Part shown: positions 21,932 to 29,410 of the stretch, piece after piece
Layout of the letters: each line of letters opens with the position of its first letter
Numbering within the stretch: position 1 is the first letter of the stretch
Source: Promethearchaeota archaeon
GTDB taxonomy: Archaea > Asgardarchaeota > Lokiarchaeia > Sigyniarchaeales > SOKP01
DNA length: 64,000 nucleotides
Reading direction: 5' to 3'
Assembly (NCBI GenBank): GCA_019058445.1
Contig: JAHPZA010000006.1
Coordinates: 64,001-128,000, forward strand
Position numbers and translations under genes: made by a program
The notes under the pieces: model-generated
Database searches by the model: none
The model's input: only the letters and a program-made list of their open reading frames with translations
Told to the model about the DNA's origin: nothing

Positions 21932-22336
21932 ATGGATGATATCAAAGATTCGCTTATCAAACACATTCCATTTTATAGTACTCTCGGATTTAGGCTCATT
22001 GAGATACAAGACGGACATGCTCACTTTGAGATAGATCTTAGAGAAGAACTCACTCAGAATGGAATGGTTCATGGTGGCGTCCTTGCATCTATGATCGATT
22101 CTACCTGTGCATGCGCGGCATATTCTCTTATTTATCCTAAGGGATGGGTTACTACAATAGATCTTCAAGTCTCCTACCTTAAACCTGTATCACAAGGTAC
22201 TTTAATTGCAAAAGCAGAATGTCTGAGAACTGGAAAGAATATCTCCTTTTGTGAATCTAAAATTTACAATGAAAAGGGAGAATTAATCTGAATCGGAACT
22301 TCTCAGCTTCTTAGAGTGGCTCCACTAACAAAATAA
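21932..22336 (+). CDS. PaaI-family (hotdog) thioesterase with in-frame TGA at 22289-22291
   Basis: NGMVHGGVLASMID, TTIDLQVSYLKPV; reading through the TGA adds IGTSQLLRVAPLTK-TAA, the expected last beta-strand. Confidence 0.8.
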
Positions 22337-22546: not shown

Positions 22547-23203
22547 ATGGCAAAAATTGGTAAGAAACTCTTCCCTAGGAAAGCCCAAGAAAAGGACAAG
22601 CTAGTTACTCAAGTGAAGAGATATACTCGTCAATTAGGTATTCGATCTAAAAATTATCAAAAGCGAGCCGAAGTAAGTAGAAAAAATGCCAAGATCGCTT
22701 TACAAAGGGGGGAAAAAGAACGTGCTAAAAGTTATTTAGTACAGTATAAACAGTATCAAATGAAAGTTGATAGAACCAATAACATCAGAACAAAATTTGA
22801 TAGACAAATTGAAGCCTTGGAAGAAGGGGCTGCAATTGCACAATCTGGAAATTTTATGGCAAAAATGCGAGATGAGTTAAAAACTATTGCTACTAAAGCC
22901 TCTCCTGAGGCAATTGCCGAAATTTCAGAAGATTCTGAGATGTATGTTTCTGAAATTGAAGAGGCTGGAGATATTCTTGCTGGTGATCTTGAGATTGATC
23001 TTGGAATAGATGTTTCAGATATGCTTGATCAACTTGAAACTGAAATGCTTTTAGATGCAAGTGGTTCAATGCCAGCTGTACCTGAAGGAGATTTTCCAGA
23101 GTACATTTCAGATATAGAACTCGAATCTGAGGAGGAAGAAATTAAGTCAAAAGCAAAACTTCAAGAAGAAATAGAAAAATTAAAAAAGGAATTAAGTGAA
23201 TAA
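22547..23203 (+). CDS. Snf7-family ESCRT-III protein
   Basis: Basic N-terminal helical hairpin (AKIALQRGEKERAKSYL), acidic C-terminal half, MPAVP and terminal KLQEEIEKLKKEL helix; GAGGAG RBS-like sequence upstream. Confidence 0.82.
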   Translation: MAKIGKKLFPRKAQEKDKLVTQVKRYTRQLGIRSKNYQKRAEVSRKNAKIALQRGEKERAKSYLVQYKQYQMKVDRTNNIRTKFDRQIEALEEGAAIAQSGNFMAKMRDELKTIATKASPEAIAEISEDSEMYVSEIEEAGDILAGDLEIDLGIDVSDMLDQLETEMLLDASGSMPAVPEGDFPEYISDIELESEEEEIKSKAKLQEEIEKLKKELSE

Positions 23204-24351: not shown

Positions 24352-26394
24352 TTAGAAAGTATATTTTTTTTTACTGTAATTCCTTCTTCGAAACATCTCA
24401 TCATCAAGCGCATCTTTTAGCTTTTCAATTTTTTTTTCGATTGAATAAATATCTTTCTGTAGTTTTTTGTAGGTCCTGAAATAATCAACATCTGAAATTA
24501 CACCACTTTCAAACTTAGTCTCAAGTTCTTTTATAGTTTTCTTAAGACTGTATTGCTCTCGTTTTAATATAATCATCCGTTTCTGGTCTTCTTTATTTTT
24601 TTCATTATAGGCTTTTCTCAAATTATTTGGATTTTGTAAGGAAGGATCATTGGGATCAAAGAATTCAGATAAATGGTTTTTTTGAAAGTCTTGAAAGAAA
24701 TAATTATTATAGGAATGATCTGAAGTATTCTGGGCACCAAACTGATTGATTGAATCATTGTTTACTTGATCCATGTAGGGCTGCATTTCTTGGTCAAATT
24801 TATGCATTTTTTCTAATCTTTTCATAAGAATATTTCTCTCATCAAGGTCTAAGTCCTTATCATGAGAATAGGTTGTTGGATATTGTTGGTGATGATTCAA
24901 ATTGAACTCATCATGAGGATGATAATTTTGGTATCTATGAGGTTGAGAATTATTTTGAGAGTAAAACCGACTATGCTCAAAGTTATAGGGCACTGAAGGG
25001 CTCATAGATCTGTAGTAATACTCCTCGGGACTTTGAAGCTGTGAAGCAGGATAGAAATGTTTTTGAGGCCAAACTGGTGGAGGATTACGATTTTGATAAA
25101 AAGGATGTTGAGATTTAAAATATTCTGAATTCAATTGAGTATTATCATTTCTTTCAAGCTCCTTTTTTTGCTTTAAATTCAGTTTTTTATTATATTTAAT
25201 TTTCAAACTAAAGAAAGAGTTTATTCCTTCTTCTATATATCTCATTAAATCATTTAAATCGATGTCAATTTCTTGAAGATTAGTAGCAATCTCATAGTTA
25301 TATAAATCATGTTCTTGAAATGATCTAGCCAAAACGATATAATCAATCACCTTCGAAATAATATTTGCTGGAAATGAAAATTCATATTTACCATAATCGA
25401 ATTGAACGAATAGTTTTTTAAAGATCTTACCCTTATCGGCAAGGTTTATTAAATCATTTATAGGAGCTTTAAAAATTAATTCCTGCTTTTTTTTAATCAT
25501 CCCATATTCATGAACAAAAGATAAATCAAAGTTGGTAATAAACAGGAGACCTTTATTTTTCTTTATAAATTTATTCTGATGATTCATTCCATTTATGAGA
25601 GTTGTTTTTACAGCATAGACCGGTTTTTCATCTTCTGCTAAATTGAGAAATCTTTTATAGGGTAGAAAGAGTTTTTTTATTTTTTCTATAAACTTAAGAT
25701 TTTTTTGAAATCCATCCAATTTTTCGTAAAGTTCCTTATTATTATCCGTGATAAATTTATTTATCGATTCATGACTTCTAAAAACATTATCCAGTATATT
25801 CTCTATGATTCTTATATTAGAATTAGGTTGATTGTATATTTCAAAAAAGAATTCTTTATTTAGTGCTAAATGACGAAAGTGAGTATTTATTTTTTCTAAC
25901 AATGTCTCTTTTATGTGAATAATTTGTCTAAAAAGAACTAATAATTCAGACTCCATTTTTGGATAATGAAAGCACTTTATCGGAGGACTTCTTGCTACTT
26001 TAATTTTATGCCTTAAAATATACAATTCATTTATTATATCACGTAAAGGTTGAATAAAGGAACGAGTATCTTTAATTAAATCTAAAAATTTCTGCTCTAA
26101 TTCCTCTTTTTTTTCATATATATTTAAAATTTTATGAGAATGACATTTTGGACACGATTTAAGGTGTTGAGTCACTTTATTTATATTTTCCGTACCACAG
26201 TCTTTGCAAACTTTCTTTCCATTTGAGTCAAAAAACTCAATATTTTTAGAATTACATTCTTGACATATAAAGTAATCAACTCTTTCATCATGTAAACAAT
26301 CAGAACAACAACTAACGCCACATTCTTCGCAGTAATAAGCGAGTTTCACATGTTTTTGACAAAAACGGCATAACTGTAAGTCTTTATCTGACAT
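24352..26394 (-). CDS. Multidomain protein: B-box-like Zn fingers, coiled coil, PH-like domain, Q/N/Y/P-rich region, putative steadiness box
   Basis: Six CxxC pairs at the N-terminus; GLLFITNFDLSF PH/GRAM-like strand; C-terminal TIKELETKFESGVISDVDYFRTYKKL; ATG 26394 preferred over TTG 26445. Confidence 0.7.
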   Translation of the reverse strand: MSDKDLQLCRFCQKHVKLAYYCEECGVSCCSDCLHDERVDYFICQECNSKNIEFFDSNGKKVCKDCGTENINKVTQHLKSCPKCHSHKILNIYEKKEELEQKFLDLIKDTRSFIQPLRDIINELYILRHKIKVARSPPIKCFHYPKMESELLVLFRQIIHIKETLLEKINTHFRHLALNKEFFFEIYNQPNSNIRIIENILDNVFRSHESINKFITDNNKELYEKLDGFQKNLKFIEKIKKLFLPYKRFLNLAEDEKPVYAVKTTLINGMNHQNKFIKKNKGLLFITNFDLSFVHEYGMIKKKQELIFKAPINDLINLADKGKIFKKLFVQFDYGKYEFSFPANIISKVIDYIVLARSFQEHDLYNYEIATNLQEIDIDLNDLMRYIEEGINSFFSLKIKYNKKLNLKQKKELERNDNTQLNSEYFKSQHPFYQNRNPPPVWPQKHFYPASQLQSPEEYYYRSMSPSVPYNFEHSRFYSQNNSQPHRYQNYHPHDEFNLNHHQQYPTTYSHDKDLDLDERNILMKRLEKMHKFDQEMQPYMDQVNNDSINQFGAQNTSDHSYNNYFFQDFQKNHLSEFFDPNDPSLQNPNNLRKAYNEKNKEDQKRMIILKREQYSLKKTIKELETKFESGVISDVDYFRTYKKLQKDIYSIEKKIEKLKDALDDEMFRRRNYSKKKYTF

Positions 26395-26604
26395 TTTCAA
26401 CCTTGTTTTTTTGATAATTAGAAGAATTAAATTTAATTTTATCAAGAATAGTAGAAGAGAATGGATAAAAAATGACTATGTTATTTGAATATTATCTTTT
26501 AAAATGGTAAAAAAAGAGGTTTTATGAGATTTTCTAAGGACTTTTAGAAATGAAATATGGAGTTATTTCTAATTTTAATATTTTAAAAAATGTGATTAAA
26601 TTCT

Positions 26605-27924
26605 TTATTCTAGTTGAATTTGAATGTATTCCGCCTGGGTCCTCAATAATTCATCTAATATTTTTTTCGCTTGCCAATAAGTTTCCACTACAGGATCGGC
26701 GAGTAAAGCTTGCAGTGCCAAATCTTTTGATTTTTTAAGAATTGCTTCCACAACAAGATCTTGAACTCCAGCTTCTGTTCTAATAAGAGCTGCAAGTCCT
26801 TTAGGATACTTTCCAAGTTCGATACCATTAACTCCGTTTTTATTTATTATTGCTGGACATTCTACGATTAAGTCTCGAGGTAAATTTGTAAAAACATTAT
26901 CATTTGGGATGTTCACTGAAGGTTCTTCATAATTTGCATCGTTCAAAATTCCTTCAATTATTTGAATTTCACGTTCTTCATTTGCTCTGATAATTTGGGC
27001 ACATTTTCCCTTTCTAATAAATCTTTTAAGCTTTTTAAACTCAAAGTCTAAAAAATTCTCATAATCTCTCACGAATTTCCGTATAGCAGAAATATCTGAT
27101 TTTTCCCATGCCCAATGGATGTACTCTCCATAATGGCTATCACTTGTATAAGGTAAATATTTATATGTTTCCAGTATGAAAGCAGTTAAATTATAACCAT
27201 TATCTAAATATGGTCCATGTTCAATAGATCTTAAGATTTCAGGACCTCGTTTATAAATATCGGGATAAGCATCTTGTCCAGTGTTTCGATATTTAATACT
27301 TAAAATGACACCAAAATGATTAAGACCACCTGCTTTAATCTCAAGATTTGAAACTGGAGTGTTAAGAATTTTTTCTAATATCGGCATAAAATGTTGATAT
27401 TCATGACAAAGTCCTACAAATTTTAAGAAAGGAAATTCCCTTTTGATCGCAAGGCATATTCGGCTTAAAGGATTTGAATAATTAATAATAAAAGCGTCTG
27501 GACAAATTTTTTTAATATCTTTACAGATTTCCAATATCGGAGGTATCACTCTCAAGGAATGAAAAAGTCCCCCTGGACCTCCATTTTCGCCAGTAACTTG
27601 TTTATTTCCAAATTCTTGAGGTATTCTATAATCCATGTCTAATAATTTAAATCTTGGTGGAATTTCTATTGAATTTATGATAAATGTAGCATTATTCAAT
27701 GCATCTGGTCTGGAAATTGTATATTCCAAACTAAAATCCAACTTTTTTTCATCAATTACAGATTGACAAGCTTGATAAGTTGATTCTAAAGTTTCTGCGT
27801 TTATGTCATGAAGACATATTCTTGATCCTTCCAGAATCTTGCTATTTAGTATATTCCCCATACAACTTAGACCAAATTGGAATGACCCAGCTCCTAATAA
27901 TACAATTTTTTGATTTCGCGGCAT
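26605..27924 (-). CDS. Glycoside hydrolase family 4 (NAD+/Mn-dependent alpha-galactosidase/glucosidase)
   Basis: GAGS, GENGGPGG, NYSNP, GLCH, GLNH, DSHYGEY, VECP. Confidence 0.93.
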   Translation of the reverse strand: MPRNQKIVLLGAGSFQFGLSCMGNILNSKILEGSRICLHDINAETLESTYQACQSVIDEKKLDFSLEYTISRPDALNNATFIINSIEIPPRFKLLDMDYRIPQEFGNKQVTGENGGPGGLFHSLRVIPPILEICKDIKKICPDAFIINYSNPLSRICLAIKREFPFLKFVGLCHEYQHFMPILEKILNTPVSNLEIKAGGLNHFGVILSIKYRNTGQDAYPDIYKRGPEILRSIEHGPYLDNGYNLTAFILETYKYLPYTSDSHYGEYIHWAWEKSDISAIRKFVRDYENFLDFEFKKLKRFIRKGKCAQIIRANEEREIQIIEGILNDANYEEPSVNIPNDNVFTNLPRDLIVECPAIINKNGVNGIELGKYPKGLAALIRTEAGVQDLVVEAILKKSKDLALQALLADPVVETYWQAKKILDELLRTQAEYIQIQLE

Positions 27925-28102: not shown

Positions 28103-29410
28103 TTATTCTAATTGGATTTGAATATAGTCTTCTTCTTGTTTTAGTAATTCTTCAAATATTTTTTTTGCCTGCCAATATGTCTCCACAACTGGATCCGCTA
28201 ATAAAGCCTGAATAGCGATATCTTTAGATTTTTTAAAAATTGCTTCTACTACGAGATCTTGAACGGATATCTGAGTTTGCAATAATGCAGTAATACTTTT
28301 GGGGTATTCCCCTAGTTTAACTCCATGTATCCCATTTCTGTTGATTAGTGCAGGGCATTCTATCACCGAATCTTTAGGGAGATTGGTGATAATATCATTA
28401 TTAGGAATATTCACGGAAGGTTCTATGTGATTTGAATCTGTTATGATCCCTTCTATTATTGGAATTGCACTTTCCTCATCGGGTTTTACAAGTCTAGCGC
28501 CTCTTCCTTTCTTTATCAAAGTTTTAGTTTTTTCCAATCCATGTGCCAAAAAATGTTCATATTGTCTCCAAAAACGTCGAACAGCGGGAATATCTGCATA
28601 TTCCCACGCCCAATGTACATATTCACCGTAATGACTATCCGTTGTATAAGGACAATATCCATAAGTTTCTAATAAAAACGCAATTAGTTTAAACCCATCG
28701 TAAGCAATTATATTACGTAAAAATTCAGGACCTTTTTTTCGAAGGTCTGGATAAGCATCTTTGCCCGTATTTTTATATTTAATATCTAAAATGTTGCCAA
28801 AATGATTTAATCCTGCACCAATGATTTCTAAATTTGACAAGGGTGTAGATAAAATTTTACTTACTAAAACAACAAAATGTTGAAATTCATGGCATAACCC
28901 AACGAATTTAAGCTTGGGATATTTTCGTTTAATTGCAAGACAGATTCTACTCATTGGATTTGAAAAATTAATGATAAAAGCGTTAGGACAGATTTTATTA
29001 ACGTCTTCGCAAATATCTAAGATAGGAGGTATTACTCTTAGTGAATGAAATAAACCCCCAGGTCCTCCGTTTTCTCCAGTAATTTGCTTGCATCCAAATT
29101 CTTGAGGTATTCTATAATCTAAATCTAATAATTTAAATCTCGGTGGAATTTCTATGGCATTAATAATGAAAGTAGCATTTTTTAAGGCATTTTGTCTATT
29201 AACAGTATATTCTAAACTAAAATCTAATTTTCTCTTATCTATAGCAGCTTGGCAAGCTTGATATGTTAGCTCTAAAGTCTCAGCATTAATATCATGTAAA
29301 CAAATAGTAGAGCCTTCCAAAGCTTTACATTCTAACATATTTCCAACGGAACCTAAACCAAATTGGAGCGAACCTGCCCCGATTAGTACAATTTTCTGAC
29401 TATTTGACAA
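28103..29410 (-). CDS. Glycoside hydrolase family 4, tandem paralog
   Basis: GAGS, GENGGPGG, NFSNP, GLCH, GLNH, DSHYGEY; TTG start. Confidence 0.93.
   Translation of the reverse strand: MSNSQKIVLIGAGSLQFGLGSVGNMLECKALEGSTICLHDINAETLELTYQACQAAIDKRKLDFSLEYTVNRQNALKNATFIINAIEIPPRFKLLDLDYRIPQEFGCKQITGENGGPGGLFHSLRVIPPILDICEDVNKICPNAFIINFSNPMSRICLAIKRKYPKLKFVGLCHEFQHFVVLVSKILSTPLSNLEIIGAGLNHFGNILDIKYKNTGKDAYPDLRKKGPEFLRNIIAYDGFKLIAFLLETYGYCPYTTDSHYGEYVHWAWEYADIPAVRRFWRQYEHFLAHGLEKTKTLIKKGRGARLVKPDEESAIPIIEGIITDSNHIEPSVNIPNNDIITNLPKDSVIECPALINRNGIHGVKLGEYPKSITALLQTQISVQDLVVEAIFKKSKDIAIQALLADPVVETYWQAKKIFEELLKQEEDYIQIQLE

Follow-up and report, generated by a model that had tools for sequence, protein, structure and literature searches.

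A probable Lokiarchaeial orthologue of the Znr_CC_PH_SB family, with a predicted PH domain and a steadiness-box hairpin, encoded close to a Snf7-family gene

The gene and its published Asgard family

The ESCRT proteins of Asgard archaea bear on the origin of eukaryotic membrane trafficking, and one of the families described among them is Znr_CC_PH_SB (also written Znr_PH_CC_SB; asCOG cog.011556). Makarova et al. 2024 (mBio, PMC10936438) describe this family as a combination of three zinc (Zn) ribbons, a PH domain, a coiled coil and a steadiness box (SB), grade it as a ‘likely ESCRT-I component’, give its distribution as Asgard-only and report an HHpred similarity of the steadiness-box hairpin to CdvA. 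A table in the same account lists for Lokiarchaeum GC14_75 the gene order C69 dipeptidase, L35Ae, Znr_CC_PH_SB (650 amino acids, 1953 nucleotides), MetE, Vps20 and DHQS II. The asCOG is also used as the ‘Steadiness/Vps23 box’ by Lu et al. (bioRxiv 10.1101/2023.07.25.550441). Here we analyze a gene at positions 24352-26394 (minus strand) of a 64,000-nucleotide stretch of DNA from a Promethearchaeota archaeon (GenBank assembly GCA_019058445.1, contig JAHPZA010000006.1, positions 64,001 to 128,000; hereafter the window), which an initial annotation had singled out as coding for a non-canonical ESCRT-I-like adaptor with a B-box and coiled coil, a PH-like domain, a prion-like region and a steadiness box. 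The best overall explanation, and one in which we have good confidence, is that the gene codes for a Znr_CC_PH_SB orthologue that would act as an upstream ESCRT adaptor. The steadiness box, the PH domain and the ESCRT gene context of the initial proposal stand, while its B-box/TRIM and prion-like labels and its claim of novelty are not supported.

The open reading frame is a real, conserved gene. A search at E <= 1e-3 gave homologues in more than 260 clusters of proteins. The 120 best of these align along most of the protein or its whole length, with identities of 46-85%, and the nearest relatives carry the labels Promethearchaeota or Lokiarchaeia. When a profile built from 25 of the homologues was used in a genome survey, it matched 238 of 301 genomes sampled across the phylum; for the family of the source genome the figure was 67 of 68. 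A longer frame could be read from a TTG at 26445; the homologues all begin at the same MS[DE], which in the window is the ATG at 26394, and this ATG is therefore the likely start of a protein of 680 amino acids. The window has a G+C content of about 30%, and the neighbors of the gene within it include those for ribosomal protein L35Ae, a WD40 protein, DHQS II and a Snf7-family protein.

Comparison with the GC14_75 gene indicates that the protein is, almost certainly, the Lokiarchaeial orthologue of the Asgard-specific cog.011556 family, with synteny, size and family-wide homology as the basis for assigning orthology. Specifically, the modules are the same, the locus is the same (L35Ae, the gene in question, MetE, Vps20 and DHQS), and the published gene order is that of the window and of 70-odd loci in a local synteny survey that covered 80 loci of related genomes. 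The protein described here has 680 amino acids versus 650 in GC14_75, a difference that lies in the variable linker, and two family-4 glycoside hydrolase (GH4) genes are inserted upstream of it; otherwise nothing essential differs.

All four published modules are present, namely the N-terminal zinc sites, the helical region, the PH domain and the C-terminal steadiness box. In the protein, three Cys4 zinc sites are followed by a region of three helices and by a GRAM/GLUE-type PH domain, which a flexible linker joins to the steadiness-box hairpin. The four modules that had been read from the sequence at the outset are all found in the 680-amino-acid translation, and the motifs quoted for them are exact. 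The claim that the architecture was unrecognized does not hold, as it is the published architecture of Znr_CC_PH_SB. Since the literature that we searched adds no experiments to that publication, the finding is already known as a computational prediction and is not the discovery of a new architecture. What the present analysis contributes is confirmation, in that both the steadiness box and the PH fold are now backed by statistics obtained independently, and the labels ‘B-box’ and ‘prion-like’ are corrected. Two details of context, a constant Snf7 neighbor and a long linker that was met, among the genomes sampled, in the family of the source genome and a sister family only, may guide experiments on what has been proposed to be an ancestral Asgard adaptor that combines a PH domain with a steadiness box and is without a eukaryotic counterpart.

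The C-terminal hairpin and the central domain

We modeled the whole protein with AlphaFold2 from a 25-sequence alignment (mean pLDDT 69). In this model the C-terminus (residues 589-676, window positions 24367-24630, minus strand) forms a hairpin of two helices, residues 589-629 and 635-676, with pLDDT values of 82-89. The stretch that had been aligned at the outset to the TSG101 steadiness box corresponds to residues 612-652 at 24439-24561, the core motif of the hairpin. When a profile of the whole protein was compared with the PDB using HMMER, the yeast Vps23 core was matched at E 0.048 in the register of that TSG101 alignment, and with a profile of the Lokiarchaeial C-termini the E-values were 0.02-0.04 for the yeast Vps28 N-core and 0.25-0.7 for Vps23. 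Much stronger values were obtained with profile A5, in which seven distant Asgard orthologues were added to the Lokiarchaeial hairpin alignment, and it is this addition that made the E-values significant. Among 177,635 PDB sequences the top three matches of A5 are yeast Vps23 core chains (E 1.1e-4, 3.6e-4 and 6.7e-4), three of those at ranks 4-7 are yeast Vps28 N-core chains (E 0.003-0.006), and further down comes TSG101 with E 0.23. An hhalign comparison of A5 with the Vps28 family of this genome placed the match on the N-terminal hairpin of Vps28 (89%, E 2.2e-6; 74% with a narrower profile). These profile comparisons show that the C-terminal hairpin shares homology with the hairpins that Vps23 and Vps28 contribute to the ESCRT-I headpiece, which bears out the steadiness box of the initial annotation.

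An explanation that has to be weighed against this homology is that of a generic protein with zinc fingers and a coiled coil, in which the C-terminus would be just a SHOCT-like or coiled-coil oligomerization hairpin with no relation to ESCRT. Many helical hairpins have a ‘G-hydrophobic-I...aromatic’ turn, the Pfam Vps23_core profile is unmatched, and Tektin and designed coiled coils are also among the weak PDB matches. However, the top six PDB matches of A5 are all ESCRT-I headpiece hairpins, the hhalign match to Vps28 reaches 89%, and the ESCRT gene context described below recurs in independent lineages. The SHOCT profile (PF09851) also gave no match on the C-terminal piece at E <= 10, and the seven weak matches that it gave in a scan of the genome all lie elsewhere than the hairpin. 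We therefore consider a generic hairpin very improbable. Two other searches were uninformative: single-sequence phmmer against the PDB gave no useful match, and a scan of the source genome with Vps23_core returned only false positives such as an acyl-CoA dehydrogenase.

The protein and Vps23/TSG101 are alike in having a headpiece hairpin in the same register and in a layout that resembles an adaptor, the recognition modules being N-terminal and the hairpin C-terminal. There are several important differences. The protein lacks a UEV domain, a P(S/T)AP-binding module and a match to Pfam Vps23_core, and has a PH domain and zinc ribbons instead; furthermore, the PH domain and a 170-residue linker come between its helical region and the hairpin, whereas the stalk of Vps23 directly precedes the hairpin. 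The UEV domain was unmatched both in the protein and, at E <= 0.1, in the genome, the latter being a weak negative since the same scan found none in control genomes.

In regards to the central domain (residues about 255-360, 25315-25632, minus strand), the model shows residues 258-357 as a seven-strand beta sandwich closed by a C-terminal capping helix. Structural comparison with VIA-align gave Z 13.4 to the PH-like domain of Lam6 (root-mean-square deviation, rmsd, 2.8 Å over 107 residues), Z 13.2 to MTMR2 (rmsd 2.3 Å over 99 residues) and Z 12.3 to the GLUE domain of human EAP45 (rmsd 2.8 Å over 105 of 129 residues). Foldseek with the full model likewise returned PH-containing chains at probability 1.0, among them the Lam6 PH-like domain and the Vps36 PH domain (2cay_B, TMt 0.55). 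The modeled domain thus has a PH fold, with GRAM and GLUE domains as its closest kin, as had been surmised from its beta-rich sequence. Pfam and NCBIfam searches with the whole protein and with five pieces of it gave only sub-threshold matches, to zinc-ribbon, B-box and PH_SLA1 profiles. Of the two outcomes that the initial annotation had named as telling against its proposal, a SHOCT-type hairpin is not what the C-terminus matches, and the central domain does fold as PH in the model.

Conserved lysines are found in three loops of the predicted PH domain (K278/K279, K301/K303 and K326/K327), a pattern compatible with binding to an anionic membrane. The PH fold is of the same subgroup as the GLUE domain of the ESCRT-II subunit Vps36/EAP45, and zinc fingers are combined with a PH domain as they are in yeast Vps36; in contrast, the protein has no EAP30 or winged-helix domains, its zinc fingers are N-terminal and not within the PH domain, and GLUE-like binding of lipid or ubiquitin is only putative. 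The PH domain is followed by a conserved helical segment (residues 361-418, 25141-25314, minus strand) that is modeled as two helices, 361-375 and 381-417.

The zinc module, the helical region and the linker

The N-terminal zinc module (residues 1-91, 26122-26394, minus strand) contains six CxxC pairs, C9/12, C22/25, C30/33, C44/47, C63/66 and C81/84, that are invariant in 25-26 Lokiarchaeial orthologues and in seven distant Asgard orthologues, and that suffice for three Cys4 sites. A search of the distant orthologues for pairs that are lost together found none, with 12 of 12 cysteines retained. The initial annotation had read this region as a TRIM-like B-box. A TRIM-like scaffold of B-box and coiled coil, or alternatively an E3 ligase of the RING type that would serve the Asgard ubiquitin system, has several observations in its favor. 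The spacing C-x2-C-x9-C-x2-C-x4-C-x2-C is compatible with the first six ligands of a B-box type 1, going by what we take to be its consensus, and NCBI annotation labels some of the orthologues ‘B-box zinc finger protein’. In addition, the isolated module matches Pfam zf-B_box (PF00643) at E 0.009, a profile of the zinc module (A1) matches the RNF4 RING at E 0.009, and the matches of a wide structural search with VIA-align include RING and B-box chains, at Z 3.0-3.9.

The details argue otherwise. The B-box score of 16.5 bits is below the cut-off of 24.1, the presumed histidine ligand H35 varies among orthologues, and the last ligand pair is a CxxC that lies ten residues further on. Better, although still sub-threshold, scores on the isolated module come from Pfam DZR (E 1e-4), which takes C30-C47 and C63-C84 as ribbons, and from Zn_Ribbon_TF (E 3e-4). 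A separate model of residues 1-100 is all-beta (pLDDT 83), and its best local Foldseek matches are chains of RNA polymerase subunit B (41 residues, rmsd about 2 Å) and of RPA, PriA and the MCM N-domain, the matched parts of which we take to be their zinc ribbons. In the wide structural search all Z values of the module are at or below 4.3, which is within noise, and RING, B-box and zinc-ribbon chains are mixed there. We accordingly give hardly any weight to a TRIM or RING reading, and lean towards a module of three sequential zinc ribbons, as published; a cross-braced arrangement of the first pair of sites is a possible alternative to sequential ribbons.

The conserved helical, or ‘coiled-coil’, region that follows (residues 92-250, 25645-26121, minus strand) is modeled as three long helices, 92-134, 147-184 and 191-250, with pLDDT values of about 80-93. 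DH-PH RhoGEF chains were matched by the helical region together with the PH domain at rmsd 5-13 Å; these matches were read as driven by the PH domain, and a DH domain in the helical region was rejected.

Between the post-PH helices and the hairpin lies a disordered, low-complexity linker (residues 419-588, 24631-25140, minus strand; pLDDT < 50). As originally noted, this tract of about 170 residues is rich in Q, N, Y, H, P and S, which make up 56% of it versus 23-29% of the other modules. The label ‘prion-like’ is nevertheless overstated and not established for what is a variable linker with 22% Q+N. Both its sequence and its length vary among orthologues, and overall conservation is poor except for three islands, at residues 477-493 (F477..QN..R.QNY.P493), 517-532 (a short helix with L523 and L527) and 573-579 (NHLS..F). 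These islands may be short binding motifs. A MIM1-type MIT-interacting motif was considered for helix 517-532 and dropped because the position that matches the key Arg varies among orthologues. In orthologues of other Asgard families, which have 498-532 amino acids, only about 30-60 residues separate the PH region from the hairpin, while in a sister family of the same order the linker is longer still and the protein reaches 754 amino acids. The long tract is thus confined, in the sampled genomes, to this family and the sister family, a distribution that goes beyond the accessible part of the account of Makarova et al. 2024. In four genomes of one genus of the same family (G147, G180, G129 and G040) the C-terminal part of the profile match contains one or two TAA stops, which could stem from an alignment that overshoots, from a frameshift or from a linker that is shorter there.

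Gene neighborhood and proposed function

The gene context ties the protein to ESCRT genes. A Snf7-family (ESCRT-III) gene at 22547-23203 (plus strand; Pfam Snf7 E 6e-10) converges on the gene described here, and its counterpart in GC14_75 is classed as Vps20 (cog.001938). In 72 of the 80 surveyed loci the block consists of L35Ae, the Znr_CC_PH_SB gene, in some cases a MetE-like gene, Snf7 on the opposite strand and DHQS II. A tail-to-tail arrangement with Snf7 is found in five Asgard families (f1, f14, f17, f21 and f9, loci L096-L101 being among them). In the four of these families other than that of the source genome the remaining neighbors differ, with histidine biosynthesis genes and a phosphoesterase, HerA, or PmbA/TldD in their place, and Snf7 stays. 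Family f9 (L098 and L099) has the Znr_CC_PH_SB gene closing a cluster of EAP30, Vps25, Vps4 and Snf7. This linkage across five families also exceeds what the accessible part of the account of Makarova et al. 2024 describes.

The mechanism towards which we lean, though only slightly, is that of an upstream ESCRT adaptor that feeds membrane remodeling by ESCRT-III. The PH domain, through its three conserved basic loops, would place the protein on an anionic membrane. In the manner of the ESCRT-I headpiece, the C-terminal hairpin would pack against the Vps28 hairpin and perhaps against those of further steadiness-box proteins. Binding of cargo, ubiquitin or partners would fall to the zinc ribbons and the helical region.

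Several observations weigh against this adaptor role. The Snf7 gene and the Znr_CC_PH_SB gene are convergent, and as such are not co-transcribed, and a MetE-like gene lies between the two in 45 of the 80 loci, including the window. The Lokiarchaeial linkage could also be inherited gene order, as the block includes housekeeping genes (L35Ae and DHQS). The Vps28 gene of this genome (L004:1348-1989, minus strand), although on the same contig, is some 0.96 Mb distant. Profiles made from the single family gave marginal PDB E-values only (0.02-0.7), and Pfam Vps23_core (PF09454) has no match at E <= 10 in the whole protein or in its C-terminal piece. PH folds have many kinds of ligand, and lipid binding is a prediction here. 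Finally, no experiments on any member of the family were found in the literature searched.

The main functional rival to the upstream-adaptor reading is a direct recruiter resembling crenarchaeal CdvA, in which the protein would sit on the membrane by its PH domain and recruit or nucleate the neighboring Vps20-type ESCRT-III directly, bypassing Vps28 and ESCRT-II. In its favor, Snf7 is the sole constant neighbor in the five Asgard families and is always tail-to-tail; where Snf7 genes occur as tandem pairs, the copy next to the Znr_CC_PH_SB gene is the best match to the Snf7 of the window; and at E <= 0.01 this genome, which has a completeness of 92.6%, yields no Snf7 match other than the neighbor. 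The HHpred similarity between the steadiness-box hairpin and CdvA that is reported in PMC10936438 is congruent with it. CdvA and the protein described here are also alike in being membrane-binding adaptors (putatively so in the present case), in having a steadiness-box-like hairpin and in being encoded beside an ESCRT-III gene. On the other hand, where the protein described here has its PH domain and zinc ribbons, CdvA has a PRC barrel, along with a peptide for binding to the CdvB winged-helix domain; neither a CdvB-binding peptide of this type nor any other ESCRT-III-binding motif was identified in the present protein. The hairpin matches the Vps23 and Vps28 cores, the genome does encode Vps28, and convergent orientation provides no operon evidence. 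We consider direct recruitment unlikely. A bolder version, which we regard as more doubtful still, is that Znr_CC_PH_SB proteins are dedicated membrane-side nucleators of the tail-to-tail Vps20-type ESCRT-III across Asgard archaea, a CdvA-like shortcut built from a PH domain, with the lineage-specific low-complexity linker of Lokiarchaeales (170-280 amino acids, three short conserved motifs) adding a regulatory or condensate-forming layer.

Additional features of the neighborhood concern genes that vary from locus to locus. The two GH4 genes are tandem paralogues (26605-27924 and 28103-29410, minus strand) that lie between the Znr_CC_PH_SB gene and L35Ae. A GH4 gene is present at that place in only two of the 80 loci (L007 and L009, close relatives at 83-85% identity), and the pair therefore looks like a recent insertion into the conserved block. 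A PaaI-type thioesterase gene (21932-22291, plus strand) between DHQS and Snf7 also has a counterpart in only two of the 80 loci (L006 and L009), and in L015 a PaaI-type thioesterase is found on the other side of the Znr_CC_PH_SB gene, indicating that this gene is a variable insert in the block.

Two further observations on ESCRT domains were made at other loci. A 793-amino-acid open frame at L003 contains a match to the Vps28 C-terminal domain (G000:C9:654709-655017, E 2.3e-7), which fits the multidomain proteins with Vps28_C that have been published for Asgard genomes. The EAP30 (Vps22/36-like) proteins of the f9 clusters (L099:4780-5517, plus strand, and L098:12939-13697, minus strand) match the N-terminal hairpin of the Vps28-family profile at E values of about 4e-4 to 7e-4, as would be expected from published work in which Asgard Vps22 is fused to a steadiness box.

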